A DNA stretch of 64,000 nt. It comes from Tubiluchus corallicola. Its lineage: Eukaryota > Animalia > Priapulida. Positions 20,009 to 64,000 of this stretch are shown here, piece by piece. The stretch spans positions 247,297 through 311,296 of the forward strand of contig JAQGDQ010000272.1 of assembly GCA_030141605.1 (NCBI GenBank). Direction: 5' to 3'. Under the pieces are notes generated by a model. The model saw only the letters and a program-made list of their open reading frames with translations. It was not told the origin of the DNA and searched no databases. Position numbers and translations under genes: made by a program. Every line of letters starts with the position of its first letter. Position 1 is the first letter of the stretch.

Positions 20009-20151
20009 TACTTGTTTATGCAAAGGGTTCAAAAATTCATTTTGGGTAATTTACAATAAAAATGATATCATTAGATATGTTAGTTTTAATTAACAGTTAG
20101 CTCTGTGTTATAGTGTATAAGCCCATTTTTATTATTCTTATTCTGCAGCAG

Positions 20152-30735: not shown

Positions 30736-32904
30736 ATGCAAACCAGAAAAGTTTACTTGTCGTTAGCAATAGTGCTGATCGGTTGTGTCATCTTATACAA
30801 AATAAGGTCATATAATCATTCACTGCTCGCATCAGGTAACTAATCGACTATTAGAAGCTAAATTAACATTATAGAAATTGAAAGATCTAATAATTCTGCA
30901 ATTAGCGCTGCTTAATTTACTCTGTTACTTCAATAGAAATTGCAGTAACGATTTTTTTCTACGATACATTGATACCAACTCACGTAGGCCTATAATTTTA
31001 TTCGTGTAAACAATAACGGTTATAACTGCATGAATCATTGTACCACAATTAAGAGATTAAAGAAGGTTTAGCAACAGACACTAACAAAAGTTCAACTGGC
31101 TGTTGATTAAATAATTAGTGCATATGAATTGCCTATCTCGACAATTATCAGGAGTAATAACTTTAAAAGATTTCAAGTATATTATTATTATTATTATTAA
31201 AAATCTTTATTGAACGTTATACAATAAGTCCTCTATTTGCAGGGCACAAAAGTACAAAAATGTCAAATAAGTCTTTACACTATGTACATTAAATAAATTT
31301 CTTGCTAAACAAGTTGAAAATTTTGCATTACGATTTACTTATTCTAAATATATATCCAATATTTATAAGCAATGTATAAACAATTTACTATAAGTTCATT
31401 TTGGATTAGTTCTTTTACAATATCTATACACATTTTAATTACATTAGTGTCTCTCTTTCTGTAAATGTTTCGAATGTCTTTATTTTCTAAGGTGCGTTCA
31501 AGATTTACTCGTATATCTTATCTTATATCTTTTCAAGTATAGCAGTAACTGAACTTATTTCTATACGTTTCATATAAGCAGACAATTGTGAATGTAAATC
31601 TACGTGTTTCAGAAAAACATGCTGATGAAAACTCCATTGAAATATCATCGAATGTAGATGATGTCGATGCGGGAAATGCTAACCAAGATGACACTCCCGA
31701 CGTTGCTGACGACAACCACAACGCTGATGATGATGATGAAGGAGAAGAAGAAGAAAAAGAAAAAGATGAAAATGACCAGAATAAATTGTACTATAAGTTA
31801 CCACCACAAAATGACCCTCAAGGTTACCATCTACACTTTGAACAAAAGGAAAAACCCAAGGTGATTCTACTTGTGGCGTATTATCGGTCAGGGTCATCAT
31901 TTGTTGGAGAATTGTTGAATAATCATCCGGATATCTTCTATTTCTTTGAACCACTCTTCAGCATGGATCACAACCGCGAGCTGGAAATGTCCAAAGGAGT
32001 TCAGTATGACGCAGAAAAATTTGTGTTAAAGAAACTGCAGTTATTGGAAGCGTTGTTCCAGTGTAATGTTACGGCTGAATGGGGACCTCAGCCAGAGTTT
32101 GTGCGTTCATCAGCTGCAATTCAGCGCACCACTGACTGTTCGACTCCAACAGCAATAGGAACACCAGACGAAAAATTTGAAGAACCTTGTTACAGTAAAG
32201 TCATGAAACTAATGAGTGATTTAGAACAAATTTCTAAAATGTGTACTTCTTATAAATATGTTGCCATTAAAACTATCCGATTGTCAGTTGCAGCTGCAGC
32301 TGCCTTTATGGAACATCCACGATTCGATGCAAAGGTCATACATATAATTAGGCACCCTCTAGCTGTAATAAGCTCTCAAAGTGCATTGCTGAAGAGGGGT
32401 GTGAAAGATACTAAACAACTCGAACAAGATTTTTTAGAAAAAATACCTGTTTGTAACAGTATTGATGAAGACATTGAATCAGGAGCTGAATTAAGAAGCA
32501 AATACCCAAATAATTACATGATGGTCCGTTACGAAGACATTGCAAATGACCCAGAAAAACTTGTTGAAGATATTTACAAGTATCTGAACATCTCCAACTA
32601 CAAACCCATTTTGGATTGGGCTTCTGTCCATACACGGTATGATAAAGGCACTCACGGGAAACCAATGCCTAGAACCTCCAAACAGGACTCTGCAGCAGCT
32701 TCGCAGCTGTGGAAATTTAGATTTGCCAAAATTGATCCTTCTTTACTGACTCTATTAGAGACTGAGTGCTCACCTGCTATTGAAGCAGGCGGCTACTCCA
32801 AGTTACAAAAGCCTTCAGTCTCAGGAAACTCTGCACCTCTGCCTCACCATAATAATGTTGTGGAAGAAGATCCCGGGGCTGATGATGGTAATAATGGAAG
32901 TTAA
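30736..32904 (+). CDS. Golgi carbohydrate (Gal/GlcNAc-6-O-type) sulfotransferase, CHST1-7-like, paralogue 1
   Basis: Exon 30736-30835 (MQTRKVYLSLAIVLIGCVILYK, type II anchor), phase-1 intron, exon 31613-32904; 5'-PSB YRSGSSFVGELL..HPDIFYFFEPL, 3'-PB VIHIIRHPLAVISS, VRYED. Confidence 0.93.
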
Positions 32905-36146: not shown

Positions 36147-38558
<2,412 letters not shown>

Positions 38559-43000: not shown

Positions 43001-46000
43001 CTTAGTACAACAGTCTGAATATCTTACAGTAGCACTGTACTTCAATTTTCACTTTTGCAAACACGTGCAACACGCTCATGGAATATTTTTGCTGTTGAAA
43101 ATTATGTTCATTTGTGATGCCATCAATAGTTGTCATTATTGTTACTATTATTTAATTATCAGAAATGTTTTTGCAGTATTATTGGTGTTAAAATCTATAC
43201 TTTTTATCGTACTTGAAAATGGGTTAGTTTATGAAAAATCATCCTGTCTTCCTTTAAGGTTTTTTTTTTATTTTTTTACTGTCTTGATGAATTATGAATG
43301 AGCATTTTATCATGCAGTTAAAGTTTGGAAAAATGTGATTGCTACATGTGCTACTTACGACTTTATTCAATTCAATTCAAAACGTGCATTTATTTCCATA
43401 TTCATGATATAACCGAGGCAGGTAAATGTATTTAATTATCACAATGGAAATAGGATGGCGAAAGACCAAGAAGGTCAACTAGTCAAGCCATCCTTCAATG
43501 GATGTATGTGATTATTGGGATGACACTGTAGCTATTTCACTCAGGAATAGTAGTGAAATGACATTATTACTATTTTACTTAGCAACTTCATCTGTTTAAA
43601 ATTCACTAATCAACTTTAAATAAGTGAAGGATGAAAATGCAATCAAGAATATCTAAACATAGAGGAAAATGATGAAGAAAAAGCAATGGTAAGTAAAGGG
43701 CAAATAATGTGGTACAAATGAATAGAAAAATGATCAAAATTCAAGCTGTCATATCGTCCATGTATAACTCAAAATGAGAAAAACATGCAAAATAATAACA
43801 ATAATATTAAATAAAAAATGATAAAAAACAAATTAAATGAAATGAAAAGTAAGCTATCCAAACAGAAATCTAAATAAACTTCCAAATAGAGTTTTACTTT
43901 GCAAAAACCCATTTTTTATTTTATCTAAATAATGGGGTGGAATTGTGGGATTGTTCCATCATGTATAACTCTGCACTTTTTGCATTTCAGGCATGAATCC
44001 ATTCAAGGAGTTTCTCCAAGTGCTTGATCTTGGGAGTAAAAAGTATCTGTTTTATTCTCTGCCCGCTCTTGGGGACACCAGATATGGTAAGAACTCACTG
44101 ACTGACTGACTGACTGTTTTTACAGCAAAAGAATTTTTAAAACTTGCAGGGACCAGCAGTGCCATTTTTGTAAATTGCGTAAATTCGTTGAGAAAATTTT
44201 TACGGACCCAGTACATTATTTCACAAGCTGACCGCTAGTTGGCAGGCCGTCACTTTGTTTACATCACGTACATCAGTGTAACCACGTGTGTATCTCTATG
44301 TATAAAAATATAGAATCAATTGTCCGGAGTTATTTGAGTCAATTGCAGACAGTTTTTATATACTTTTGCATAGGAGCGGCCAGTACTTAGGCATTTTCGA
44401 GACAATTAGGTATCATGTATCCTTGATAGTTGGGTATTTTAAATTATGCATGAAACAAGGTAATTGATATTTTAAGTCCACTTAGAGGTTCTCTACGGTC
44501 ACAAAATTGCATTTTCAACCCCATTGGGGGCCTAGGTGGCCCCAAAACCCCCGGCCTGTTTCAGAGTTTTTTGCAATTTCTCATTCTCATCCCTGGGCCT
44601 GGCAGGGGAGCTTTTATGATGTGTAAACTGTGAATTTTGTTCATGTAACATTCACAGCTTAGCAGCAGATGCTAGTACGTGGTTTCGTTTAAAGTTCAAA
44701 TAGACGAACAACAGATGTTCTAATCTTCAAAGCAGCGCAAAATGGTCTTAAGAAAATGGAGTTTCTTAAACAACTCACTACTGCGACCGAAAGCGATTTT
44801 TTTGCTCCACTTGTTTACTTAGAGTCTCCGAAAGCGAAATTAACTGGTCTTGTGCTCTTGAAGTGTGCTAATATAGAGGATTTTAGTTAAAGGAAAACTG
44901 GACCCAATTTTAAACTATAGGTCAAAACAATCTACTCTTTAAAATATTGAAAGGAAACTTACTGTTTTTTAAAAATGACATACGTGAAACAATTATTACC
45001 ACACAAACACAATTTCTTGTTCCCGCCATTAGTTTTTCGCTTTTACATGCATTTTTTCATTTGCTGGTTAGACGAACATTAGCGTTTATCTTGGAAAAGC
45101 ATTGCACAAAAAACAGTTGCTGTATCTGTCAGTTTAGATGCGTGAACACAGCAGTATATTTGGTGAAATTTGAATTTTCGTCATAAAACTTGCCTAGTTT
45201 TAGTACAATACTGAATATCTTACAGTAGCACTGTACTTCAATTTTCGCTTTAGCAAACACGTGCAACACGCTCATGGAAAATTACGTTATTTTGTGATAT
45301 CATCAATATTTGGGCTCGCCCGCCATTAACTAAGTTTTAAATCTATTATTTAATTGTCAGAAACGCTTGGCAGTGTTAAAATGTGTTAATTGTGTTAAAA
45401 TGTAAACCTTTTGTAGAACGCGAGAATGGGATAGTATATGAAAAATCATCCCGTCTTCGTTTAGATGTTAAGATTTAAACTCATTTTAATTATTATTTAA
45501 CGTAAACGTTAATGATAATTCGTATATATAGCATTTATTGGTTTAAGTGTTAGACAATTTTATCTGATAGAAATTAAATTACATCTAGTCTATAGGAACA
45601 CAAACTAAACTGGCAAAATGCAAAGGTATTCACAGGTAAACGTTTGCAGATCTAACACACCACAAGCAATACTGACAGGAAACGTTTGCTCACTTAAGAC
45701 GCCATAAATAGTTTTGAAAAGGAGCGAAAGAAATGTGCATTGCTTTGTACGACAACATCTCGTTTTTGAAAGTAGCGAAAAATTCCAATTTATAACATCA
45801 TTATTATGCTATAGACTTTATTTTCACATAAATGTTAATTAAATTTCAATGAATCAATCAATTTATTTCACTCCAGCAATACATATGCAATACATCAACA
45901 TACAATGTTATTGAAAAAAATAAACAGTATAGGTAAAAAAACATTGATGAAGTCAAATTAACCAAATAAAAGAGTTGCTGTATGACACCTTGAAAGCTTG

Positions 46001-49000
46001 GCTTGTTAAGGTAGCACAAATGAGTGAATGAAAAAATGGTTAGCGTCAGAAGAAATGATGGAATGGAAAAAAAATGTAAGATTAGGGATAGGAAGAAGGA
46101 AGGGAGGGAAGGAGGAGTGAATGAAACAATGGTTAGGGTTAGTAGACATGATGGAATGGGAAAAATAGTAAAATTAGAGACAGGAAGAAGGAAGGGAGGG
46201 AAGGAGGAGTGAATGAAACAATGGTTAGGGTTAGTAACCATGATGGAATGGAAAAATAGTAAGATTAGGGATAGGAAGAAGAAAGGGATGGAAAGATGAG
46301 TGAATGAAAGAAAGGTTAGGGTTAGTAAACATGATGGAATGGGAAAAATAGTAAGATTAGACATAGGAAGAAGGAAGGGAGAGGAGGATGAGTGAATGAA
46401 AGAACCCGCTATAGTTTCGGGCAAAAATTGCATAACGATCAGTCAAAATTACATAGTAAAATGCTATCACAGATACCAGACAAAATTTTCACTGTATGTG
46501 ATACACAGGGTCTTCTCTGTTTTCAGACAAACTTCCCTACTCAATCCGGGTTTTACTCGAATCGGCGGTTCGTCACTGCGACAACTTTCAGGTAAAAGAG
46601 AAGGACGTACAGAACCTCCTTAACTGGGAGAAGACGCAGCATGAGAATGTTGAGGTCGCTTTCAAACCCGCCAGAGTTATTTTGCAAGATTTCACGTAAG
46701 ATCAATTTACGGACAGGCAGAAATTGTTAAGAATATCAAATTATGAAATGTTGAATTTGTTCTTTTCAGGTTTAATTAAGTTTTCTTTTTTATTTAAAGT
46801 TGTAAGAATGCTTTTATTTCATCCAGATTTATTCTCACAAATTCCTTTTGCATAATCAAAAACTTTCATTTCTCTTTCAAGATTCTGTTATTAAACTCAA
46901 GTCATTTAGTGAAAAAGCTAATATCCAGGCCTAGTTTATTTATTATTGTATAATATTAATGTATTTACATTACTGTTAGTATTGTGAGTTAATATGATTG
47001 CTGTGCTACACTCATATCTTGGTTTGCCGGACAAAATGTGGACTGTTAAAAAGTCCCACGTACTACGGACCCAGTACAGTATTTCACAAGCTGACCGCTA
47101 GTTGGCAGGCCCTCACTTTGTTTACATCGCGTACATCAGTGTAACCACGTGTATATCTCTATGTATAAAAATATAGAATCAATTGTGCGGAGTTATTTGA
47201 GTCAATTGCAGACAGTTTTTATATACTTTTGCATAGGAGCGGCCACTACTTAGGTATTTTTGAGACAATTAGGTGATTAATTTTTCATTCTACATTACCG
47301 TGAGTCTAATACACGGCGCCTAATGTATCACCTTAGTATCCGTAAATACGCAAAATCAGCAAATTCGGACCGACGTTTCCCTGCTTTTGTCCGGCAAACT
47401 GAGACGTGAGTGGATTAAATCAAATTAAATTATAAAAAAATTCAACATCCTTCTACATTTCTGTAAATTAAATTTTTTCACCTGTTACTTTTATTTATTA
47501 TTTTATCACATTTATGAAAAGCAAAAATGTATAGGCAAATATAATGGGTAAAGAAATGATACATTTTTGTATATCAGAAGTTCTTCTGCAGGTCTATAAA
47601 TTAGAACTTTACCTGCAGTTTTTGTCGTTATTATTTATTACGTTGATGCAAATCGAAAGAGTAAAATAAATTACAGTAAGTCCTCGCTTAACGACACTAA
47701 TGCGTTCCAGAAAAATGCGACGTTAAGTGAAACTTCGTTAAACGAAGCCAAGACTTCCATAAAAAGTCAATAAAAGAACTGAGATACGTTCCAGAGACAA
47801 AAATCAATGCTGCTTAAATCTTATAAATTAAAGTTTTATGGGTTTTTCATATTTCTACTGATTAATTTCTTTCTGTTTACTGGAAACCATTTATCTTTCT
47901 ATAACATCTAGCCAACCTTGCTAGCTGTTCTCTTTCCTTAACGTTGAAGCCTATATATATATATATATAGACAGAGACATATTAGCAGTTATACAAACCT
48001 ACATGAAGTAACCCTGAAACAATTTTAAGTAGTACTAACCTGATTGTTATAGCAACTTTTAGATTTGAGACGAAGTTCATTGGCATAAAGTTTAAACTGG
48101 GGTGTCTTGGAAGCTTATAAATCGACAAACAGGTGTCGCTTGATATAAACAGTTAAGGCCACTAGGATTTAGTATTTAGTCAGTCGGGAAGCAAAGACAT
48201 TATAATAATTGTACTGCTTAGGTTACTAATGCGTTTTTAGAGCAAAATAACAGAATATATGCTGTTTTAATGCTTCAAATTAATTATAAAAGATTGTTGA
48301 TAAAATAAAAATGGCTGAGTTGAGCAAAAAAAATTGTCGTTAAAATGAAACGAGGCGTCGTTAAGTAAGAAAAAGGTGTCAAATGTTCAACGTTGTTAAA
48401 ACGAAACGTCGCTAAACGGGGAGTCATTAAGTGAGAAAAAGGTGTCAAATGTTCAGGGTCGTTAAGATGAAACATCGCTAAACGGGGAGTCATTAAGTGA
48501 GAAAAAGGTGTCAAATGTTCTGCGTCGTTAAGATGAAACGCCGCTAAACGGGGAGTCATTAAGTGAGAAAAAGGTGTCAAATGTTAAGCGTTGTTAATAT
48601 GAAACGGCGCTAAACGGGGAGGCATTAAGGGAGAAAACGGTGTCAAATGTTCAGCGTCGTTAATATGAAACATCGCTAAACGGGAGTCGTTAAGCGAGGA
48701 AAAGGTGTCAAATGTTCAGCGTCGTTAAGATGAAACGTCACTAAACGGGGCGTCGTTAAGCGAGGACTTGCTGTAACAGGTTAAGAAATGATACTTTTTT
48801 GGACATTAGTTTGTAGAAAAGTACTTTTCATTCCCCCAAAAGTACCAAATTGATTACCACTGCCAAGGTTTACAACACTTAGATAGTAGAAACATCTTGT
48901 TTAAAGATTTTCACATATTTTCTATGTTTTCTAGTGGGGTGCCAGCTGTGGTTGATTTCGCTGCAATGCGAGACGCGGTCACACGTCTGGGTGGAGACCC

Positions 49001-52000
49001 TCAGCGAATAAATCCCAAGTCCCCGGCTGACCTGGTCATCGACCATTCTGTCCAAGTCGACGTAGCCAGGAGGTAACAAAAAATCAATATTTATTGATGC
49101 TGGCAAACTAGGCAATCAATCTTTACTGTGATAAGCCAAAATTAACAAACTTTTCAGTTCTTACGAGATGCTAATCTGACGATGAACTTGTTTTAGAACG
49201 TGCGAGTTCTAATTGCAAGGACTTTAGTTCAAGTCCTGATTGGTCAAAATTTTTCGGCAAATTGGTCATTAAGTTAAATTTTTATTTAATTCGATGCCAC
49301 GATATAAGGGTGATATCCAACACACAACTGCAGGTCTTAAATGTGTTTGTAGCAGGACGGGTATCTAGTTGCTGCTAGGAATCCATACTAGGAGCAGTCT
49401 ATGTTTGAGAGGAGTCGATACTAAACCGTCAAGAGATGTATTCTTATGTATATGTGTGCCCTTCCTTAACAAAGTGAATTGCTGGAAGCTGTATGGCAGA
49501 TAAAATTGTCCGAAAACAATTTCGTGGTTGTCACCCATCCACTTACTAAACAGACCTGGCATTTCTTAACTTTATCACCAAGCACACACCATGACCACTC
49601 AGCTATTCAGCTTTCCAGTTCTAATTCTTCGTCTTCGATCTTTCACCTGTCAAGTTTAGTCTCTATTTCATATCAGCAAACAATAAGGTTAATTCTGGCT
49701 TAGCAGTTACTGCTGTACATCCACTAATTCTTAAGGCAATGTTGTAGACACCACTACAATTACTACAATTAGTCACCGTTTTATAATTAATTTTTTAATA
49801 ATTAATAAGTATGTAAAAAAATCAGTTGCCGTTATTTTGCCCGTTAAAATTTTAAACATTACTTTTTTCCGCTGTGCACTGATTGGCCCATGAAACTTTG
49901 TTGAACGGGTCTTTGTAATATATGCGCTGTCTTGAATAGCATATTCGCTGGCTTGAATAGCATATTCGCTGGCTTGAATAGCATATTCGCTGTCTTGAAT
50001 AGCATATTCGCTGGCTTGAATAGCACATACGCTGTCTTGAATGGCATATTCGCTGGCTTGAATAGCATATTCGCTGTCTTGAATAGCATATTCGCTGGCT
50101 TGAATAGCATATTTGCTGTCTTGAATAGCATATTTGCTGTCTTGAATAGCATATTCGCTGGCTTGAATAGCATACTTACTGGCTTGAATAGCATATTTGC
50201 TGTCTTGAATAGCATATTCGCTGGCTTGAATAGCATTTTCGCTGGCTTGAATAGCTTATTCGCTGTCTTGAATAGCATATTCGCTGGCTTGAATAGCATA
50301 TTCGCTGTCTTGAATAGCATATTTGCTGGCTTGAATGGCATATTTGCTGGCTTGAATAGCATATTTGCTGGCTTGAATAGCATATTTGCTGGCTTGAATA
50401 GCATATTCGCTGGCTTGAATAGCTTATTCGCTGGCTTGAATAGCATATTCGCTGGCTTGAATAGCATATTCGCTGTCTTGAATAGCATATTCGCTGGCTT
50501 GAATAGCATATTTGCTGGCTTGAATAGGTTAACACGACGTCTTAAAACTCTTGCTTTCTTCTTTCGTTTGCGTCTTTAGTTTTTCTTACTATCTACTGTG
50601 TCTGTAACTAATTTGCTAATGCTTTGATGTTAAAATTGTTGAACTAGCTGACATTAACATTATCTTACTTCACCTGTAGTGTCTGCGTTTCAGCATTTAG
50701 TACTGGCATATTTGTTTGCTGTTGTGTTTTATGGTGTGTGTATATTGTATTAGTGTCAATTCACGAAACTATGTGAACTCAGTAAAGTACAAAGGCTAGT
50801 TCACACAACAAATTCAAATTGTATAAAAGATCATACAGTCAAACCTCCTTATACCACCCATTTTGTGAGCAGAAAAAATTTGGAGTTATATGCGATTCAT
50901 GTATGACAAAATATAACATACAACAACATAATAAAACATACATAAATATACAAAAATGTTATATTTTGTCATAGACGAATCACAAAACATTTAGGCGAGC
51001 ATACACAGGTTAGAGTCCTCAACTGTCACTCTAAAGTTTAGTTAATTAAAAGAAAATTATTAAAGTAATCATCTGTAAATTAATCAGTTACTCAAGCAAG
51101 TTTTTGTTTGCGTAAACAATGCGCGATGTACGTTACAGTTTGCGCACAATCAAAACACGCCTTATTTTATGCATGAAGTCTGGTCAGTGTAAACGACTCA
51201 CAGGAGGCATTGTGGGATGGAATTATATGCAGATGGCGCTGGCGTTAGTTGAGACTGCTGACTGTGTCTCCTGTCGCACAATTATGAATTATGAATTTAT
51301 TCCACAGCAATACAAACATACAGACAAATTGTTATTACTTTGAAAAAAACTTATAAAATGAACGAGTTACTGTGAGGAGGAGGAAGGAGCATTGAGCTTT
51401 CGAGTCCTCCTCCAGATAAGTGAAACAATTGACAATTAACATTACATAGTTACTGTGAGGAGGAGGAAGGAGCATTGAGCTTTCGAGTCCTCCTCCAGAT
51501 AAGTGAAACAATTGACAATTAACATTACATAGTTACTGTGAGGAGGAGGAAGGAGCATTGAGATTTCGAGTCCTCCTCCAGATAAGTGAAACAATTGACA
51601 ATTAACATTACATTTTCATCAGTTATAACGTACATTAGAACAAAATAAGTTTTGTTAGTAACTTACGATCAGGATGAGTAAAATTGTGAGTTAATTATAC
51701 CGCTGTAGTAGGTAATTCTTTGATGCTTGGCAATTTGCCTGACAGATGGCGGGTAACGGAAACGGTGTTACAGGTTCTTTTTATATACAGCCGTTTTGTT
51801 CCTGGCCGTTTTTCATTGGTGGTATCACGAGGTTTGACTGGATTATAGTTCATTTGCTTGAATAGCTTCTGTAACTCATTGCTGGTAATCTGGTTTTATT
51901 CTTGCAGTAGTAGAGAGTTTACACTTGATCTTATGCGGGTCATCATTTCAGTTTTTTTAGTTTCAAATCGTCCAAAACATGTTAAAACTAATCAGAAATT

Positions 52001-54571
52001 AATTACATATATATGTGTCTGCTTGCATATCAAAATCGTCCGTTAGTCGGCAATTAAGCTTTTTTAGTCGTTCACGTATCCTGAATCTCCATTTCATGAG
52101 GATCATTTTAATACCAAGTTTATCGCTCTATGTTATTTCTAAGCTGAGATAATCTACATTGAAGTTGAGGTGCAGGCTGCACACTGAAAAACATAATCTT
52201 GAGAAAATCACTGTTAAAGTCGGCCATTGTTTTTTGTCGCGTTTCTATAAAATACTTGGCAACCTAAATGTTGGTTTCTACAGACTTTGCAAGAACACTT
52301 TGAAGTTATGTTTAAATCCAGTAGATGGCTCTTCCTGGATTGATTGTCCTTCCAAAATGGCTGCTTCCCTGAGCTACTACTGGAGTTTGCAAATACAAGT
52401 TTTTCACAATTGCAGTACTAGTTTCTAGACAGAAAAGTTAGTACGGGCTTATGAAATTTAATTTTTAGTATTTTTTAAACATTTTCTTGATAACTTCACC
52501 CTAGAATATTAAAGTCAAATATATTTAGCATTTGCTTTCATAAAAAAGCAAAAAACTGACATTTGACCAAATTTTTGGTGCTTTCTACTTTGAAGCATCA
52601 TAACATAGATTTAATTACGCCGACTTGTGGACAGTTTTGGTTTGCAAGCAGCACATTTAATCATGTTTGTTGCAAAGACACTTGAGATTAAAAAGTTTCG
52701 TATCTTTTTGATTAGTCAGCTTTTGCCGTGTCTATGTGTGAAGACCTGTTAGAGTTAAACCCGGCTTCGTGTGGCAAAGATTTTATGTTGCAACGTTTCT
52801 TGTTTCTTGTTTTATAGTTTGTTACGGAACATGCCCAACCCCGGTGGAGGCGGTAGAGGTGCAGCTCCCTCTGGCGGCGTTATGAGATTAGGCCCTGCCA
52901 CCGAGCTGGGTAGGTCGGTACCGACGTCGGGTAACGTACAGTCAAGATCATCGCTTGCGACTAATACGTGCCGGACTTCGTACAGTGCTCGTAGGCATCC
53001 TTACAAGGTGCTGCCGCCCCCTGGCGGAGTAAGTCAAAACACCCGCCCGTCTGTTCCGCAGGCTTCTGAACAGTCTCCGGTGCTTAAACCAGTGTGCCAA
53101 ATATGCATAAGTTCAGGCTTTCCACAGACGACGGAAATCTGTCCGTTTCACGGTCTCAGATCAGGATGGTCAGTATATACACGTAGCGTGTCATAGTGTA
53201 GTTGCATGTACTAGAGTAGAAAGCGTGTCGTTGTGCAGTTGCATGTACTAGAGTAGAAAGCATGTCATCGTGTAGTTGCATGTACTAGAGTAGAAAGCGT
53301 TGTGCAGTTGCATGTACTAGAGTAGAAAGCATGTCATCGTGTAGTTGCATGTACTAGAGTAGAAAGCGTGTCATCGTGTGTTTGCATGTAATAGAGATTC
53401 TATTGTGCTGTTTACAAGTTACAAGTTCATTATAAACATTACTCGTCTTGTTTTCGTGAAAAAATTGTCAAACTTTTTGTCATTACCTGAATCTAAAAGT
53501 GAATTCAAGTAACATTTTTTCTTCCATTTAACAATGGTATGCATTCTAATGCTCGTGGTGTGTACAACATTGTTCTGCTTGTGCATTTACCGCAGATGTC
53601 TAGATGTTGGTCTGTGGTTTTTATCATTGTCACTGCATGACATTTTTTAGATATTATTGGCCAAACGATGGCAGATTGCATGTGGTGAAAAATCGTAGAC
53701 ATCGTAGCACGAGAAGGTCAACAAATGTTTATAAAAATGTCGGCCATCTTTGAAATGCTCCGTTTGTCGGTGTTCAAAACAAAAGTCAGTACGAATACAT
53801 TGCCGTGTCTTCAAAGTGTAAACTGTAAAACTGTCGGCCATCTTTAAAATGCTTCGTTTGTCGGTGTTCTGAACAAAAGTCAGTACGAATACATTGCCGC
53901 GTCTTCAAAGTGTAAACTGTAAAACTGTCGGCCATCTTTAAAATGCTCCGTTTGTCGGTGTGCAAAACAAAAGTCAGTACGAATACATTGCCGCGTCTTC
54001 AAAGTGTAAACTGTAAAACTGTCGGCCATCTTTAAAATGCTCCGTTTGTCGGTGTGCAAAACAAAAGTCAGTACGAATACATTGCCGTGTCTTCAAAGTG
54101 TAAACTGTAAAACTGTTAAAACGCTTGCGTATCAAAACCATTGTTCTTTGCAGGAAAGCGCAACTTTTTTGCTTTGCTTGCCCATTGGTCATTTCTTAGA
54201 TTTCTAAACCTTCATCTGAATTTGCCAAACTTTAAGTCCTGTTGAATCTTTTTTTGCTCAAAACTGTCTGAACGTGCGAGTTTGTCTACATCATTACCAT
54301 CATCACTTCTTACGGCCGATATGTTTCGCAACGATTCAGATGGCATGTATTAAAATCCATTGTGCTTTCTATAGATTTCAAGTGGGTCTCGTTTGTATAA
54401 TTAGTATGTGGTGCTTTGTTTTCAGTGCCGATGCTTTGGAACGTAATCAGGAACTTGAATTTGAGCGAAACAAGGAACGCTTTCGTTTTCTTAAGGTATG
54501 CATTGCTCTCTCTATCTCTCTTTCATTTACTCTCTGTCTTTCTCACTCTCTGTATCTCTTTCTCTCTCTCC

Positions 54572-54625
<54 letters not shown>

Positions 54626-54630
54626 CTCTC

Positions 54631-54672
<42 letters not shown>

Positions 54673-54684
54673 CATTCTCTCTCT

Positions 54685-54754
<70 letters not shown>

Positions 54755-54779
54755 GTCTGTCTGTCTGTCTCTCTTTCTG

Positions 54780-54838
<59 letters not shown>

Positions 54839-57800
54839 CTCATTCACTTACATAAACTCTATTTTTCTTGACGTGTTTTCATTCTTGCTTTCACTTTTTT
54901 ACTTCAACTGTCCCCACTAAGAGTGCCCATTGGTTTGTTTCGGTTAATTTGCATAAAAATTATCTACTTTTATGTTTATTCCTCTCTGTACTCTTCTGAA
55001 TGTACGATTTCTTTGTCTAACTATCTATCCATCGCCGACACCTGATACCCCTCCTCATTTGCATTTTAGTGGGGCGCGTCGGCATTAGAGAACATGCTAA
55101 TCGTGCCGCCCGGTTCCGGGATCGTCCACCAGGTGAACTTGGAGCACCTCGCCCGTGTCGTGTTTTGTGATAATGGAATGTTGTACCCCGACAGCCTGGT
55201 GGGGACGGATTCTCATACCACCATGATTAACGGTTTGGGAGTGATAGGCTGGGGTAAGTGTGTAACTGATTACTTCAGATTTGATGAAATGACTGTGAAA
55301 AGGTTCAGGGATGAGAATTTTCCGCGGATACGCGGAATTCCGAGTTTTTGGAAGACCAGTAGTGCCATTTTTGTAAATCGCATAAATTCGTTGACAAAAT
55401 TTTTACAGATCCAGTACATTATTTCACAAGCTGACCGCCAGATGGCAGGCCGTCACTTTGTTTACATCACGTACATCAGTGTAACCACGTGTATATCTCT
55501 ATGTATAAAAATATAGAATCAATTGTGCGGAGTTATTTGAGTCAATTGCAGACAGTTTTTATATACTTTTGCCCAGCAGCGACCATTACTTAGACGTTTT
55601 TGAGACAATTAGGTATCATGTATCCTTGATAGTTGAGTATTTTAGATTATGCATGAAACAAGGTAATTGATATTTTAAGTCCACTTAGAGGCTCTCTATG
55701 GTCACAAAATTGCAATTTGTTGCTGGCTGCAACGGGAGCCTTGCCCCCCCTTGAACCCCCATGGGGGCCTAGGCAGCTCCCAAACCCCCCGGCCTGTTTC
55801 AGAGTTTTTTGCAATTTGTCATTCTCATCGCTGAAGGTTTTTAACTTCTTTGTAACATCAACAATGTCCGTTTTATAAGCAATCCACCATATACAGTAGT
55901 CGTCACTCGAAGCAAAGCTGGACCCAGTCTTAAACTATAGGTCAAAACAACCTATTCTTTAAAATATTAAAAGGAAGTTGGCTCACGTGAAAGAGTTATT
56001 ACCACACAAACACAATTTTAGCGCCATTAGTTCTTCGCTGTTACATGTATTTCGCCATTCGATAGTTAGACTGGTTCTAGCGCCTGCATTTCGGAAAGTG
56101 TCGCACAAAAACAGGTGCTTTACCTCTCTGTTCCGATGTGTTAGCTTGTGATGAACTGCACGCGTTCGACAGCTCATGCGTGAGCACAGCGGTAAATTTG
56201 AAATTTGGATTTTTATCTTAAAAGTTGTCTAGTTTTAGTACAACACACTGAATATCTTACAGTAGCACTCTACTTCAATTTTTGCTTTCACAAACTTTGC
56301 TGTTAGAAATTTTGTTAGTTTGTGATGTCATAGTCATCAATAGTTGGGCTCGCCTGCCGTTTAATTAAGTTTTTAATCTGTAATTTTCTTATCAGAAACA
56401 CTTTTGCAGTATTATTGTGTAGACGCATGTCAAATAGCGTGTTAAAGTGCGTGCAAAAGACAGCCGGCAGAAACCTGTTTGAAGCCAGGTATGTGTGCAA
56501 ATCCATACCGGTTTGAAGCCAGGTATGTGTGCAAATCCATACCGGTTTGAAGCCAGGTGTGTGTGCAAATCCATACCGGTTTGAAGCCAGGTATGTGTGC
56601 AAATCCATACCGGTTTGAAGCCAGGTATGTGTGCAAATCCATACCGGTTTGAAGCCAGTTATATGTGCAAATCCATACCAGTTTGAAGCCAGGTGTGTGT
56701 GCAAATCCATACCTGTTTGAAGCCAGGTATGTGTGCAAATCCATACCGGTTTGAAGCCAGGTATGTGTGCAAATCCATACCTGTATGAAGCCAGGTAGGT
56801 GTGCAAATCCATACCTGTTTGAAGCCAGGTGTGTGTGCAAATCCATACCTGTTTGAAGCCAGGTATGTGTGCAAATCCATACGCTGACTAGACCAAATAA
56901 TTGTCATCATTTTTATGTTCTAAAAGCTTCAACCATTGCACTGTCTTCACTTCTAGGAGTGGGAGGCATAGAAGCGGAGGCGGTGATGCTGGGACAGGCC
57001 ATCTCCATGGTGATACCAAAAGTTGTCGGTTATAAGCTGGTGGGTAAACTCGGTCGCTTGGCAACGTCAACTGATGCGGTGCTCACCATAACCAAGGTAG
57101 AAGCTTAAGAGAGGTGTTCCCACGAACACCTGAGTCTTGTATAGTTAATTGATCAGTGTGTTTGATACGTTCCAGTATGTTCCAGAAAGACAGAGAAAGA
57201 GAGTGAGAGAGAGAGGGGGAGAGGGAGAGGCAGAGGCAGAGGCAGAGAGGCAGAGGGAAACTATATTAACATATATACACTATATAAGCTGTTTCAATAT
57301 ACAGTTTAATAAAGAGTTACAGAGATGGGTTTTAGAGCTCAGCCATTGTTGGTCAATACAGATGAAACATTATTCAGTTTTTTCCTTCGGACTTCTTACC
57401 TTTGCAATTTCTTACCCTTGCAAAAACTCCAATAAGTGAGGGAACACTGTAAAACTACAGATCTCTATGTATGTAGGAGAAAGTTGGCCTCCTGCTTAGC
57501 TAATGTCTGTTGTACAACCAGATGTGATGCACTCGTGCAAATTAGCGCGACTCCACATGGTACTACGTGTTGTTCTGGCCAACAGACACATTTCACTTAA
57601 TGTCCAAGTTCATTATGTACAAAATAACACGTAAGTCAGGGGTGTGCAAATTGCGGCCTACCGACAGAATTTGTGTGGCCCGCAAAGAGATTTGTCAACC
57701 TAATGAAACTGCGGCCCGGGTGATTAATTGAGTGTATCCAGCTGAAGTCCGTGCCACGATCCCAAAGATAGTGCGGGTAGTTTTTTCTACTAGATCGGAT

Positions 57801-60361
57801 GCCATTAACCCTTACAAGACGGTTGTAGCTTAATGTCACTCTACTACACAGACTGTGTGATACACATTACTAATATGCATTGTAATGAAATTACCACTAT
57901 CTGTCCTGAAAGTAGAAATATATGGTTTGTAATATAAATTTTTGTAACTTCTAAAATAGTTTCTTGAGTGTAGTAGCGCAGTAGTAATGATGTACGCAGG
58001 TTGGATGCAAAATAATCGTTATTAGGCCTTTCTGTACTTGGCTCCTTGATCAAACTCCCTGTGGCCCACAGGAATTGCGGAAAAGTTTAATTTGGCTCGG
58101 CTAGTCGGATAATTTGCACACCCCTGATGTATGTGTTAGTCAAAGTGTGTAACCTGATGATCTTAAGCATGTTTCTTATATTGTACAGGGTCATACTCAT
58201 GCTTGCAAGTTAACTTGGCACATTTTCAGCAGTTAATGTGGTATATCTCTTACTGAGTGAGACATATAGATCCTAGTACATGTATATTTCGTACCTCAGG
58301 GTGATTTGATTGTTAAAGTTCAGTGTGTCGCAATATTTCCAGGGATGAGAATTTTCCGCGGATACGCGGAATTCCGAGTTTTTGGAAGACCAGTAGTGCC
58401 ATTTTTGTAAATCGCGTAAATTCGTCGAGAAAATTTTTACGGACCCAGTACATTATTTCACAAGCTGACTGCTAGTTGGCAGGCCGTCACTTTGTTTACA
58501 TCACGTACATCAGTGTAACCACGTGTATATCTCTATGTATAAAAATATAGAATCAATTGTGTGGAGTTATTTGAGTCAATTGCAGCCAGGTTTTATATAC
58601 TTTTGCATAGGAGCGGCCAGTTCTTAGGCATTTTTAAGACAATTAGGTATCATGCATCCTTGATAGTTGGGTCACTTTGTTTACATCACGTGCATCAGTG
58701 TAACCACGTGTAGATCTCTATGTATAAAAATATAGAATCTGTTGTGCGGAGTTATTTGAGTCAATTGCAGACAGTTTTTATATACTTTTGCATAGGAGCG
58801 GCCAGTACTTAGGCATTTTTGAGACAATTAGGTATCATGCATCCTTGATAGTTGGGTATTTTAAATTATACATGAAACAAGGTAATTGATATTTTAAGTC
58901 CACTTAGAGGCTCTCTATGCTCACAAAATTGTAATTTGTTGCTAGCTGCAAGGGGGCTTTGTCTCCCATGAATCCCCATCGGGACCTATGCGGCCCCAAA
59001 ACACCGGCCTGTTTTAGAGTTTTTTGCAATTTGTCATTCTCATCCTTGTATTCTACTGCCCTTTTACTTTTGGAACACCCGGTATTTTGGCACAAATGTT
59101 CTTATGTTTTCTGTGTAGCACAAAGTTGCACGTTAACGTCACACGCGGTGAACTAACCTCTCTGCCATTTAAATTCTAGCATCTACGTCAAGTGGGCGTG
59201 GTAGGCAAATTTGTGGAGTTTTTCGGCCCCGGAGTGGCCCAGTTGTCCATCGCCGACCGTGCTACAATTTCCAACATGTGCCCAGAGTACGGCGCCACCG
59301 TCGGTTTTTTCCCTGTTGATGATGAGAGCATTGTTTATCTTAAGCAAACTGGTGAGCATTGTTTATCTTAAGCAAACAGGTGAGCATTGTTTATCTTAAG
59401 CATACAGGTGAGCATTGTTTATCTTAGGCAAATAGGTGAGCATTGTTTACCTTAAGCAAACAGGTGAGCATTGTTTATCTTAAGCAAACAGGTGAGCATT
59501 GTTTATCTTAGGCAAATAGGTGAGCATTGTTTACCTTAAGCAAACAGGTGAGCATTGTTTATCTTAAGCAAACAGGTGAGCATTGTTTATCTTAGGCAAA
59601 TAGGTGAGCATTGTTTATCTTAGGCAAATAGGTGAGCATTGTTTACCTTAAGCAAACAGGTGAGCATTGTTTATCTTAGGCAAACAGGTGAGCATTGTTT
59701 ATCTTAAGCAAACAGGTTAGCATTGTTGATCTTAAGCAAACAGGTGAGCATTGTTTATCTTAATCAAACAGGTGAGCATTGTTTATCTTAAGCAAACAGG
59801 TGAGCATTGTTTATCTTAATCAAACAGGTGAGCATCATTGGTGACTGCTTTCCTCTGGTATTTCTAAACTAATTCCTGTTTTTCATTATTAAGCTATTAC
59901 TATTGATTTTTCTTTACTCTAGGCTTAGTTATATTTGTTATAAAGAAATCTTGCAATTACAAATATTTACACTGGAGATTTTTCCTTTTGCTTTTTGTCA
60001 TTTTTGTTAATTCTCTTGTGTCTGCTTTGCTGAAACTTGAAAATATGTTAATTTATGCACCTCAAATTCAACGTGGATCATCTCAGCTTAGAAATAACAT
60101 AGAATGATGAACTTGGTATCAAAACGATCCTCATGAAATGGAGATTCAGCATATGTGAATAACTAGAAAAGCCTAATTGCTGACTTGTGGTCGATTTTGC
60201 TATGCAAGCACACATTTAATGATTTTATTGTCAAATTTTTGAACACACCATGTTGTTTAGGTCGTGATGGTGACAAGGTTCAGTACATTGAAGCTTACTT
60301 AAGAGCAAATAGAATGTTTCGCAATTTTTCTAATCCCAACGAAGACCCCATTTTTTCCGAG
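40030..60361 (+). CDS. ACO1: Iron regulatory protein / cytosolic aconitase, IRP1-type core, 5' portion (continues beyond window)
   Basis: Exons 40030-40057 (tentative), 43991-44086 (MNPFKEF), 46527-46695 ([15 protein letters not shown]...[11 protein letters not shown]), 48935-49072 ([15 protein letters not shown]...[11 protein letters not shown]), [52818-53168], 54426-54495 ([13 protein letters not shown]), 55070-55253 ([13 protein letters not shown]...[13 protein letters not shown]), 56957-57096, 59180-59351 ([14 protein letters not shown]), 60261-60361; all GT-AG and phase-compatible. Confidence 0.95.
40700..41225 (+). mobile_element. Interspersed repeat; further copies ~52040-52545 (+) and ~60060-60200 (-)
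   Basis: Shared ATCTCCATTTCATGAGGATC...GCTGAGATAATC...TGAAAAACATAATCTTGAGAAAATCACTGTTAAAGTC. Confidence 0.8.
41537..42219 (+). mobile_element. Kolobok-like non-autonomous element, family A
   Basis: TTAA|CGGACAAGAAAA ... TTTTCTTGTGCT|TTAA; TTAA on both sides; homologous to 7448-8130. Confidence 0.75.
42681..43253 (+). mobile_element. Kolobok-like non-autonomous element, family B; copies 44891-45460 and partial ~55910-56460
   Basis: TTAA|AG(G)AAA.CTGGACCCAAT ... TCCTGTCTTCCT|TTAA; three similar copies. Confidence 0.75.
44147..44595 (+). mobile_element. CAGGG-ended MITE, internally deleted copy
   Basis: Ends ATTCTCATCCCTG; body shared with 55306-55833 and 58340-59048. Confidence 0.75.
46020..46400. 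repeat. Purine-rich ~92-bp tandem repeat, ~4 copies
   Basis: GAGTGAATGAAA...GGTTAGGGTTAGTA..CATGATGGAATGG...GGAAGAAG unit; explains ORFs at 45858-46433. Confidence 0.85.
47009..47412. mobile_element. Tc1/mariner-like MITE
   Basis: TA|CACTCATATCTTGGTTTGCCGGACAAAA ... TTTTGTCCGGCAAACTGAGACGTGAGTG imperfect TIRs. Confidence 0.8.
47674..48773. mobile_element. Tigger/pogo-like MITE with an internal ~65-bp tandem array (48335-48765)
   Basis: TA|CAGTAAGTCCTCGCTTAACGAC ... GTCGTTAAGCGAGGACTTGCTG|TA. Confidence 0.9.
49925..50527. repeat. 21-bp minisatellite, ~28 copies
   Basis: Unit CTTGAATAGCATATTCGCTG(G/T); explains the MLFKPAN and LNSIFAG ORFs. Confidence 0.97.
50836..51840. mobile_element. Tigger/pogo-like MITE containing an 83-bp x3 array (51365-51612)
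   Basis: TA|CAGTCAAACCTCCTTATACCACC ... GGTGGTATCACGAGGTTTGACTG; 23-bp TIR with 2 mismatches. Confidence 0.85.
52818..53168 (+). CDS. Probable cassette exon of the IRP gene encoding an IRP2-like insert (117 codons)
   Basis: TTTTATAG acceptor and TG|GTCAGT donor; 351 nt, phase 2/2; GC-rich open frame [11 protein letters not shown]...[11 protein letters not shown] lying between [10 protein letters not shown] and [12 protein letters not shown]. Confidence 0.8.
53185..53395 (+). repeat. ~37-bp minisatellite with six TGCATG motifs just downstream of the cassette exon
   Basis: Unit GTGTAGTTGCATGTACTAGAGTAGAAAGC(A/G)TGTCATC. Confidence 0.9.
53739..54116. repeat. 94-bp tandem repeat, 4 copies
   Basis: GTCGGCCATCTTT.AAATGCTCCGTTTGTCGGTG...CAAAGTGTAAACTGTAAAACT. 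Confidence 0.95.
54505..54841. repeat. Compound (CT)n-(AT)n-(CTGT)n-(CTAT)n microsatellite
   Basis: Direct reading; starts right after the 54495 donor. Confidence 0.97.
55306..55833 (+). mobile_element. CAGGG-ended (hAT-like) MITE
   Basis: TIR CAGGGATGAGAAT / ATTCTCATCGCTG, flanked by AAGGTT on both sides. Confidence 0.85.
56473..56882. repeat. 34-bp minisatellite, ~12 copies
   Basis: Unit GTTTGAAGCCAGGTATGTGTGCAAATCCATACC(G/T). Confidence 0.97.
57637..58126. mobile_element. hAT (Charlie-like) MITE
   Basis: 16-bp TIR CAGGGGTGTGCAAATT / AATTTGCACACCCCTG; flanks ACGTAAGT / ATGTATGT (degenerate 8-bp TSD); subterminal GGCCC motifs. Confidence 0.85.
58340..59048 (+). mobile_element. CAGGG-ended MITE with an internal ~185-bp tandem duplication
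   Basis: CAGGGATGAGAAT ... ATTCTCATCCTTG; block GTCACTTTGTTTACATCACG...GATAGTTGGGT occurs twice. Confidence 0.85.
59326..59835 (+). repeat. 28-bp minisatellite spanning an IRP exon/intron boundary, ~18 copies
   Basis: Unit GAGCATTGTTTATCTTAAGCAAAC(T/A)GGT = last 26 nt of exon 59180-59351 plus the GT donor. Confidence 0.97.
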
Positions 60362-60721
60362 GTAAGTACTTTATATTTTAATTTTATTTTATTTTAATCT
60401 TATTTGTGGATAATCGTTTTCTATTAGCTTGGGGCCTCCGGTTGTCCGTCTCAAAATTGACCAAATTCCGTTTCAAAGAATCGTCAATTCCGTTTCAATT
60501 CTGCTTCACAGAAATTAGATGCTGTAACTAATATTTACCATCAAATTATGTGATAGATTGTAATTAAAAAATAAATTTTTATACGAATTAAGTATGTAGT
60601 CTGTCAGGTATTTGTATTTGGTTAAAATAAAATGAAGATTTGAATATATAAGATTGTATTCTAGATTATTATATGTAATCATATAATATATCGTATATCT
60701 AGTCATTTTTGTGTCATTAAA

Positions 60722-63700
60722 TTGTGATTGGTTGAATTAGATGCAAGTGTTGTCATAAAATGTGTGATTGGTTGAATTTGATGCAAATGTTGTCATAAAA
60801 TGTGTGATTGGTTGAATTTGATGCAAGTGTTGTCATAAAATGTGTGATTGGTTGAATTAGATGCAAATGTTGTCATAAAATGTGTGATTGGTTGAATTAG
60901 ATGCAAATGTTGTCATAAAATGTGTGATTGGTTGAATTAGATGCAAATGTTGTCATAAAATGTGTGATTGGTTGAATTTGATGCAAATGTTGTCATAAAA
61001 TGTGTGATTGGTTGAATTAGATGCAAATGTTGTCATAAAATGTGTGATTGGTTGAATTAGATGCAAGTGTTGTCATAAAATGTGTGATTGGTTGAATTAG
61101 ATGCAAGTGTTGTCATAAAATGTGTGATTGGTTAAATTAGATGCAAATGTTGTCATAACATGTGTGATTGGTTGAATTAGATGCAAATGTTGTCATAACA
61201 TGTGTGATTGGTTGAATTAGATGCAAATGTTGTCATAAAATGTGTGATTGGTTGAATTAGATGCAAATGTTTATAAATTATGCAATGTTGTCATAAAATG
61301 TGTGATTGGTTGAATTAGATGCAAGTGTTGTCATAAAATGTGTGATTGGTTAAATTAGATGCAAATGTTGTCATAACATGTGTGATTGGTTGAATTAGAT
61401 GCAAGTGTTGTCATAACATGTGTGATTGGTTGAATTAGATGCAAGTGTTGTCATAACATGTGTGATTGGTTGAATTTGATGCAAATGTTGTCATAACATG
61501 TGTGATTGGTTGAATTAGATGCAAGTGTTGTCATAACATGTGTGATTGGTTGAATCAGATGCAAATGTTGTCATAACATGTGTGATTGGTTGAATTAGAT
61601 GCAAGTGTTGTCATAACATGTGTGATTGGTTGAATTAGATGCAAGTGTTGTCATAACATGTGTGATTGGTTGAATCAGATGCAAATGTTGTCATAACATG
61701 TGTGATTGGTTGAATTAGATGCAAGTGTTGTCATAACATGTGTGATTGGTTGAATTAGATGCAAGTGTTGTCATAACATGTGTGATTGGTTGAATTTGAC
61801 GCAAATGTTGTCATAAAATGTGTGATTGGTTGAATTAGATGCAAGTGTTGTCATAACATGTGTGATTGGTTGAATTTGATGCAAATGTTGTCATAACATG
61901 TGTGATTGGTTGAATTAGATGCAAGTGTTGTCATAACATGTGTGATTGGTTGAATTAGATGCAAGTGTTGTCATAACATGTGTGATTGGTTGAATTAGAT
62001 GCAAATGTTGTCATAACATGTGTGATTGGTTGAATTAGATGCAAATGTTGTCATAACATGTGTGATTGGTTGAATTAGATGCTAGTGTTGTCATAAAATG
62101 TGTGATTGGTTGAATTAGATGCAAGTGTTGTCATAAAATGTGTGATTGGTTGAATTAGATGCAAATGTTGTCATAACATGTGTGATTGGTTGAATTAGAT
62201 GCAAGTGTTGTCATAACATGTGTGATTGGTTGAATTAGATGCAAGTGTTGTCATAAAATGTGTGATTGGTTGAATTAGATGCAAATGTTGTCATAAAATG
62301 TGTGATTGGTTGAATTAGATGCAAATGTTGTCATAAAATGTGTGATTGGTTGAATTAGATGCAAATGTTTTCATAAAATGTGTGATTGGTTGAATTAGAT
62401 GCAAGTGTTGTCATAACATGTGTGATTGGTTGAATTAGATGCAAATGTTTTCATAAAATGTGTGATTGGTTGAATTAGATGCAAGTGTTGTCATAAAATG
62501 TGTGATTGGTTGAATTAGATGCAAATGTTGTCATAAAATGTGTGATTGGTTGAATTAGATGCAAGTGTTGTCATAAAATGTGTGATTGGTTAAATTAGAT
62601 GCAAATGTTGTCATAAAATGTGTGATTGGTTGAATTAGATGCAAATGTTGTCATAACATGTGTGATTGGTTGAATTAGATGCAAGTGTTGTCATAAAATG
62701 TGTGATTGGTTGAATTAAATGCAAATGTTTTCATAAAATGTGTGATTGGTTGAATTAGATGCAAGTGTTGTCATAACATGTGTGATTGGTTGAATTAGAT
62801 GCAAGTGTTGTCATAAAATGTGTGATTGGTTGAATTAGATGCAAGTGTTGTCATAAAATGTGTGATTGGTTAAATTAGATGCAAATGTTGTCATAAAATG
62901 TGTGATTGGTTGAATTAGATGCAAGTGTTGTCATAACATGTGTGATTGGTTGAATTAGATGCAAGTGTTGTCATAACATGTGTGATTGGTTGAATTAGAT
63001 GCAAATGTTTTCATAAAATGTGTGATTGGTTGAATTAGATGCAAGTGTTGTCATAAAATGTGTGATTGGTTGAATTAGATGCAAGTGTTGTCATAAAATG
63101 TGTGATTGGTTGAATTAGATGCAAATGTTGTCATAACATGTGTGATTGGTTGAATTAGATGCAAGTGTTGTCATAACATGTGTGATTGGTTGAATTAGAT
63201 GCAAGTGTTGTCATAAACTGTGTGATTGGTTGAATTAGATGCAAATGTTGTCATAACATGTGTGATTGGTTGAATCAGATGTAAGTGTTGTCATAACATG
63301 TGTGATTGGTTGAATTAGATGCAAGTGTTGTCATAAAATGTGTGATTGGTTGAATTAGATGCAAGTGTTGTCATAAAATGTGTGATTGGTTAAATTAGAT
63401 GCAAATGTTGTCATAAAATGTGTGATTGGTCGAATTAGATGCAAATGTTGTCATAAAATGTGTGATTGGTCGAATTAAGTGCAAGTGTTGTCATAACATG
63501 TGTGATTGGTTGAATTAGATGCAAGTGTTGTCATAAAATGTGTGATTGGTTGAATTAGATGCAAATGTTGTCATAAAATGTGTGATTGGTTGAATTAGAT
63601 GCAAGTGTTGTCATAACATGTGTGATTGGTTGAATTAGATGCAAGTGTTGTCATAACATGTGTGATTGGTCGAATTAGATGCAAGTGTTGTCATAACATG

Positions 63701-64000
63701 TGTGATTGGTTGAATTAGATGCAAGTGTTGTCATAAAATGTGTGATTGGTTGAATTAGATGCTAGTGTTGTCATAACATGTGTGATTGGTTGAATTAGAT
63801 GCAAGTGTTGTCATTAACTGTGTGATTGGTTGAATTAGATGCTAGTGTTGTCATAACGTGTGTGATTGGTTGAATTAGATGCAAGTGTTGTCATAACATG
63901 TGTGATTGGTTGAATTAGATGCAAGTGTTGTCATAAAATGTGTGATTGGTTGAATTAGATGCTAGTGTTGTCATAACATGTGTGATTGGTTGAATTAGAT
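60722..64000. repeat. 40-bp satellite, ~80 copies, runs off the window
   Basis: Unit TGTGTGATTGGTTGAATTAGATGCAA(A/G)TGTTGTCATAA(A/C)A. Confidence 0.99.

Follow-up and report, generated by a model that had tools for sequence, protein, structure and literature searches.

An IRP2-like insert on a probable cassette exon in the IRP1-type gene of the priapulid Tubiluchus corallicola

The IRP/cytosolic aconitase gene and its surroundings

The window, by which is meant the whole 64-kb stretch of Tubiluchus corallicola DNA that was analyzed, contains a gene of the IRP/cytosolic aconitase type. A nine-exon model extending from 43993 to 60361 (Table 1) was obtained by placing the exons through tblastn with the proteins of relatives and then setting their boundaries on AG and GT. 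The model is free of stops both with exon 52818-53168 (473 amino acid residues) and without it (356 residues). No exons were found by tblastn 3′ of 60361 up to the window end at 64000; the gene continues past this point, and its Fe-S cysteines and C-terminal active-site residues lie outside the 64 kb. A satellite array of approximately 40 bp units occupies the intron of the IRP gene from 60712 to 64000, that is, to the window end, and further satellite arrays are found at 49920-50527, 53732-54116, 56473-56886, and 59326-59835.

Table 1. Exons of the IRP-type gene and elements next to its cassette exon (window positions)
Feature	Position	Strand	Remarks
First coding exon of model	43993..44086	+	ATG at 43993; aligned with P. 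caudatus residues 7-39; a further short coding exon 5′ of it is possible
Core exon	46527..46695	+	tblastn and model
Core exon upstream of cassette	48935..49072	+	phase-2 donor
Cassette exon	52818..53168	+	351 nt, phase 2/2, adds 117 aa; by alignment, IRP2-insert homologue
Cassette donor GTCAGT	53169..53174	+	apparently of the weak type
37-bp tandem repeat	53185..53396	+	5.9 copies, TGCATG in each; just 3′ of cassette donor
Core exon downstream of cassette	54426..54495	+	model and contig junction
Core exon with IRP1-type IVHQVN and GTDSHTTM	55070..55253	+	solved-structure search
Core exon	56957..57096	+	tblastn and model
Core exon	59180..59351	+	tblastn and model
Last core exon within window	60261..60361	+	tblastn and model

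The candidate cassette is flanked by AG (52816-52817) and GT (53169-53170), and the codons split at its AG/GT-bounded neighbors place it in phase 2 at both ends. It therefore has the properties of a cassette: a length that is a multiple of three, matching phases, and a frame that stays open either way. Its GC content is 0.56, as against 0.36 and 0.38 for the flanking introns. An earlier reading of the letters of this DNA (the sequence-only reading) had described an open, GC-rich segment of 351 nt with an acceptor, a donor, and phase 2 at both ends; the present data agree with this, and the junction peptides that it gave with and without the exon are identical to those of the nine-exon model. 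The exon peptide was matched by the annotated insert of Priapulus caudatus in a tblastn search against the window (E 7e-19). Used alone as the query, the insert peptide gave one match among longer proteins, a genomic ORF, none among proteins of similar length, none among solved structures, and no Pfam family. Because of the P. caudatus match, the match to a genomic ORF, and a contig that splices the donor to 54426 (see below), 52818-53168 is regarded as more than chance, and its identity as a chance ORF or repeat was rejected.

Elsewhere in the window, 10793-17883 and 20001-27087 are inverted copies of a 7.1-kb segment (99.4% identical) that contains the 3′ exons of a gene resembling that for amyloid precursor protein (APP_E2 domain, YENPTY tail); the duplication either is recent or reflects an artefact of assembly. 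A 1.65-kb element is present in three copies of approximately 98% identity (14614-16263, 18357-20008, and 21621-23267) within and between the arms of this duplication. Two tandem long ORFs on the plus strand (31549-32901 and 37239-38555) possess sulfotransferase domains, are approximately 82% identical at the DNA level, and each have an acidic N-terminal stalk.

The IRP1-type core and its insert

The best solved-structure matches of exon 55070..55253 are to IRP1 (E 7e-28 and 1e-27), followed by IRP2 (1e-22), and the long form of P. caudatus scores 1455 bits against IRP1 versus 1239 bits against IRP2. The window core resembles IRP1 more than it does IRP2 or mitochondrial aconitase, and the N-terminal active-site motifs of IRP1/cytosolic aconitase are present in the model. 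It carries GTDSHTTM and IVHQVN and not the substituted active site of IRP2, the human counterparts being MAHQIN, GTDSHITM, NKNFEGR, and NSRDWAAK (GNSRDWAAK). The IRP1-type aconitase motifs, including NRNFEGR and SSRDWAAK, are intact in all 18 insert-bearing full-length proteins, P. caudatus included, and the three Fe-S cysteines are likewise present in 18 of 18. Relative to IRP1/cytosolic aconitase (ACO1; PDB 2b3x, 3sn2) the form that skips the exon is collinear, whereas human and rabbit IRP1 lack the insert and the alignment breaks exactly at its site. A tree of the core domain places the window gene as sister to P. caudatus (support 100/99; 84.6% identity over 356 residues) and leaves the IRP2 fragment unplaced; the gene groups with P. 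caudatus, in which one locus leads to both forms, and not as an orthologue of gnathostome IREB2 as a separate paralogue.

As far as its motifs tell, the long form is an IRP1/aconitase with an insert and not an IRP2; that it is a true IRP2 was rejected because the IRP1-type motifs are kept in 18 of 18 long forms. The sequence-only reading was right in calling the core IRP1-like, on structure matches, bit scores, and motifs alike, but its statement that the animal makes both protein types goes too far, the long forms all having IRP1-type motifs where human IRP2 is substituted. Gain of the insert and loss of enzyme activity appear to be separable events.

The insert of 117 residues consists of PNPGGG near the start, a Gly/Ser/Pro/Arg-rich spacer, and CQIC-x11-CPFH near the end. 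All 15 of the 15 inserts aligned have PNPGGG and C-P-x-H without variation. In a set of 37 inserts, found with a motif-containing profile and including close relatives, CxxC precedes CP[FY]H in 34, at a distance of 8-17 residues in 32 and of exactly 11 in 23; it is absent from fish IRP2, a divergent IRP-family protein (P0176), and one genomic ORF. Insert lengths range from 36 to 83 residues in pairs of long and short forms.

For comparison with vertebrate IRP2 a profile was built from 15 invertebrate stretches, each consisting of the insert and short flanks, with zero vertebrates among them. Against human IRP2 (6vcd_A, residues 127-221) all 75 positions matched (E=1.4e-8); the three other structure matches were at E 0.47 or weaker, and no IRP1 chains were returned up to E 10. 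The human counterpart of the exon's insert is IRP2 residues 137-209, where DFSK-C-AIQNAPNPGGG parallels the start of the invertebrate insert, and CPFH aligns with C201-H204, the invariant Cys-Pro, a candidate heme-regulatory motif, falling on human C201. With the flanks off, the insert-only profile gave 7.3 bits for the fish IRP2 insert (reached by 2 of 2000 composition-keeping shuffles), 7.4 bits for the lamprey insert (5 of 2000), and 23.7 bits for P0176 (0 of 2000), the first two scores being modest and dependent on two short motifs. The lamprey insert lacks PNPGGG and possesses CxxC.

The vertebrate protein (IREB2; PDB 6vcd_A) thus has its 73-residue insert at the same position of domain 1, with PNPGGG and CPFH, and this insert, according to PMC3048577, is likewise encoded by a separate exon; the priapulid gene also has a Cys/Pro-rich N-terminal insert on an exon of its own. 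It differs from IREB2 in its IRP1-type core with intact aconitase motifs, in that the insert is optional in the annotated isoforms of relatives and 36-117 residues long, and in the CxxC approximately 11 residues before CPFH, which the gnathostome inserts (human and fish) do not have. Judged from these alignments, exon 52818-53168 and the IRP2 insert are homologous, and the proposal of the sequence-only reading that it is IRP2-like is upheld by the match to human IRP2 and the shared PNPGGG and CPFH.

Long and short forms in priapulids and other animals

The reads of one public run (X1), assigned by its species label and assumed to be RNA, were compared with 43900-54520. A 701-nt contig from this run spans 52960-53167 and joins 54425 with GT..AG ends; with the cut shifted by +1, this is junction 53168>54426. 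The contig is approximately 90% identical to the window (19 other letters and one 3-nt gap over approximately 208 nt), from which we surmise that its source is a close relative or a divergent population. The 15 differences listed for it within the exon change 14 codons (nine synonymous, five replacements, no stops), and its sole indel relative to the exon is of 3 nt. Inclusion of the exon by splicing is real in this contig of a close relative, as the sequence-only reading had expected for junction 53168>54426. The 5′ junction 49072>52818 is not covered in run X1. At 54459 the whole depth (113.2/113.2) comes from the inclusion contig, the only one in the run that covers exon 54426-54495. The skip junction 49072>54426 is not among the joints listed in run X1, where upstream exon 48935-49072 is at zero depth; contigs lose rare variants, and zero-depth exons within 43900-54520 carry no evidential weight.

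The donor GTCAGT is alone among the gene's nine donors in the window in having a pyrimidine at +3. Such a donor was deduced for 14 of 18 cassette genomic ORFs versus 9 of 49 classifiable upstream-exon ORFs (one of the 50 being unclassifiable), with a Fisher p of 1e-5, or 0.002 without stop-ended ORFs; the deduction is made from the residue after the split codon (protein read-through), and the ORFs are related and non-independent. Weak donors that have been conserved are a usual mark of regulated exons. Quite probably the exon is also skipped in T. corallicola, aided by this weak +3-pyrimidine donor. Of the window's 25 plus-strand copies of TGCATG, which we take to be an RBFOX-type motif, eight lie in the 1257-nt intron after the cassette, six of them from the 37-bp repeat; the latter may be an RBFOX-type enhancer or the chance amplification of one unit.

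With the core exon on the 5′ side of the cassette as query, 4104 matches were obtained, of which the best 120 were examined and 30 clusters were looked up, most being chosen for having at least two members. The first ten, chosen as named with at least two members, all contain both long and short forms. Comparison of 22 pairs reveals that in 21 the short form is the long form minus one block at the cassette junction, give or take one residue, a tolerance allowed because a codon is split there; the remaining pair consists of two different species. Among the best 120 of 4104 matches, the 21 pairs represent 20 species and eight phyla: Priapulida, Brachiopoda (Lingula), Annelida (Owenia), Nemertea (Tubulanus), Mollusca (11 bivalves), Hemichordata (Ptychodera), Echinodermata (Patiria), and Chordata (three lampreys). 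These pairs are predicted gene models, the short forms being mostly from RefSeq/GenBank. Conservation in relatives is thus wider than the sequence-only reading had proposed. In P. caudatus the RefSeq models named cytoplasmic aconitate hydratase-like isoform X1/X2 (XP_014666450.1/XP_014666451.1) are the same two isoforms with the same exon, but they are automatic annotation and their insert has 83 residues as compared with 117 in the window. Independent of annotation, both forms are seen on two ENA contigs (4076 and 3166 nt), one of whose uninterrupted ORFs has a 36-residue insert that the other lacks; these ORFs are approximately 90% like Mytilus and differ from each other at only three other aligned residues.

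Among the matches listed, two insects, a ciliate, and Saccoglossus (a partial record) had the short form alone; named cnidarians, amphioxus, tunicates, and crustaceans do not occur among the best 120 of 4104 matches. When 1.84 billion representatives were searched with a profile, there were 20 matches, namely 18 lone-exon genomic ORFs, a fish IRP2-type fragment (P0174), and P0176, and a metagenome scan gave two contigs, both without the insert. In one UniRef entry the long form of Patiria bears the name "Iron-responsive element-binding protein 2." In an ACOC-like protein of Mya arenaria (P0038; 224 aa) the insert goes from PISDK to WGAKAL, with CPFH and the next exon absent; this is probably a faulty gene model.

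Evolutionary history and possible function

The exon is likely an alternatively spliced cassette that dates from the protostome-deuterostome ancestor, shares its origin with the IRP2 insert, and adds a flexible loop; this grading applies to its identity and history, the ligand step discussed below being less sure. An ecdysozoan, spiralians, ambulacrarians, and lampreys all have it, which by parsimony points to that ancestor, and since pairs of long and short forms are annotated in protostomes, ambulacrarians, and lampreys, the insert would predate the IRP1/IRP2 split as an alternative exon, which is what the sequence-only reading had suggested. After the vertebrate duplication, quite probably, IRP1 lost the exon and IRP2 fixed its inclusion, the loss of aconitase activity in IRP2 having arisen separately. 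A partition of two ancestral isoforms between the duplicates fits the presence of the insert in IRP2 and its absence from human and rabbit IRP1. In teleost mitf and synapsin, one gene with two isoforms likewise became two genes with one form each, although in the present case the ancestral cassette persists in at least eight phyla; we know of no such partition described for IRP1/IRP2.

The lamprey gene is likely an intermediate stage. Its core scores 1469 bits against IRP1 and 1360 bits against IRP2, and three pairs of lamprey proteins (P0154/P0151, P0146/P0148, and P0152/P0149) have an IRP1-type active site and annotated forms with and without the insert. It may be the pre-duplication gene or an IRP1 orthologue that retains the cassette, and the trees do not choose between the two: the corrected tree, from which four rows (a second frog fragment, P0176, Manduca, and Saccoglossus) were left out and in which gnathostome proteins are represented by fragments only, does not separate lamprey, IRP1, and IRP2, and an earlier tree placed lamprey with the gnathostome rows without strong support.

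It is very improbable that the inserts of invertebrates and IRP2 arose independently in a permissive surface loop and are alike through low-complexity composition. The middle of the insert is unalignable over its range of 36-117 residues, the insert-only scores are low, and a sponge protein has an unrelated 6-residue insertion at the cassette site, all of which speaks for such an origin; yet the human, fish, and invertebrate inserts share the order of PNPGGG and CPFH and place the two in almost the same register to both junctions, composition-keeping shuffles seldom reach the scores, and the lamprey insert, skippable in annotation, ends in CPFHLQPLP, similar to the human CPFHLQPVP. That the exon, although an ancient homologue of the IRP2 insert, is always or almost always included in T. 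corallicola, the short form being minor or the product of gene modelling, is unlikely, albeit less so. Both forms are annotated in P. caudatus, which is the closest relative, and a mussel-like animal has both on transcript-sized contigs. The cassette donor is of the weak type. In favor of constitutive use, the inclusion contig alone covers the downstream exon in run X1, but rare variants are lost from contigs and the upstream exon is at zero depth. Two further observations favor constitutive use: four named species (Liolophura, Glandiceps, Pinctada, and Mactra) have the long form only among the matches listed, and the insert of 117 residues is the longest seen, which suggests that this lineage has altered it.

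On the preferred reading, an alternatively spliced cassette, inclusion would add to domain 1 a flexible loop ending in Cys and His residues, with a mostly disordered spacer free to vary between two fixed ends. CxxC-x~11-CPFH would then constitute a heme-, metal-, or redox-sensitive site, and the loop would give the long form an additional input on stability or IRE binding, atop the Fe-S switch; for this predicted function we consider the chances to be about even. Human IRP2 C201 and H204 are, we presume, heme ligands. AlphaFold2 models are uninformative here: the full-length P. caudatus long form has a mean pLDDT of 54, with the insert mostly below 50, and the insert with flanks a pLDDT of 56 and pTM of 0.24. 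The same cassette history is compatible with conserved ends that form a docking or structural element (domain 1 packing, partner recruitment) or a zinc site instead of a heme/iron sensor, which is a serious possibility though the odds lean somewhat against it. PNPGGG is as invariant as CPFH and yet contains no ligand residue, and by established chemistry CxxC...CxxH suits a zinc site. Conversely, Cys-Pro is the core of heme-regulatory motifs, and gnathostome IRP2 lost CxxC and kept CPFH, which argues for Cys-Pro as the lasting element. Published work bears on both sides: deletion of the insert altered tumor growth with known IRP targets unchanged (PMC3048577, PMC10340119), whereas a review links the insert domain to heme, which oxidizes residues there that are recognized by HOIL-1 (PMC10340119). 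The insert is also described, in PMC3048577, as apparently unstructured, and as an iron degron it was rejected on a statement in that review.

More tentatively, the IRP1/IRP2 pair may be a frozen splicing switch with an age of over 500 million years: in lampreys and the majority of bilaterian phyla an active aconitase-IRP would carry a heme/metal-sensing Cys3His loop (CxxC-x~11-CPFH) whose inclusion is regulated, in jawed vertebrates the two states would have become hard-wired as two genes, and P0176 would possibly be a second, independent IRP2-like fixation.

In the IRP literature, among PMC7850002, PMC3048577, PMC4112806, PMC4184891, PMC7034838, PMC2854138, PMC2811384, PMC8466369, PMC4693282, PMC4056636, PMC5817353, and PMC10340119, the insert is called specific to IRP2, with a function described as unclear or largely unknown. 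A full-text search with narrow terms found, in the portions of text it returned, no report of the insert outside vertebrates, and no paper was found that interprets the long and short isoforms of RefSeq/UniRef. The words "insert" and "exon" are absent from the accessible part of an earthworm IRP paper, and a sponge paper states, in the portion available, that an IRP2 homologue is absent. The isoforms are public in RefSeq, and so the data are not new; their interpretation is probably unpublished. It would change the history of the insert, an optional exon coming first and duplication then dividing the forms. A second form may have escaped work on invertebrate iron control in which a single plain IRP1 was assumed. 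Across eight phyla only PNPGGG, CPFH, and, outside jawed vertebrates, the upstream CxxC are retained, which singles out the positions at which to mutate human IRP2. Natural pairs that differ by the insert only, on an aconitase-type core, are offered by oyster, mussel, and lamprey, in which the effect of the insert is separable from the other changes in IRP2.

An Atlas search with P0176 returned generic aconitase leads only, all <0.9. This protein fragment is strongly divergent and has at the cassette site an insert of 99 residues that ends in PGLPIQDEVCPFH and contains neither PNPGGG nor CxxC; by its sequence it may be an invertebrate paralogue that became IRP2-like independently.
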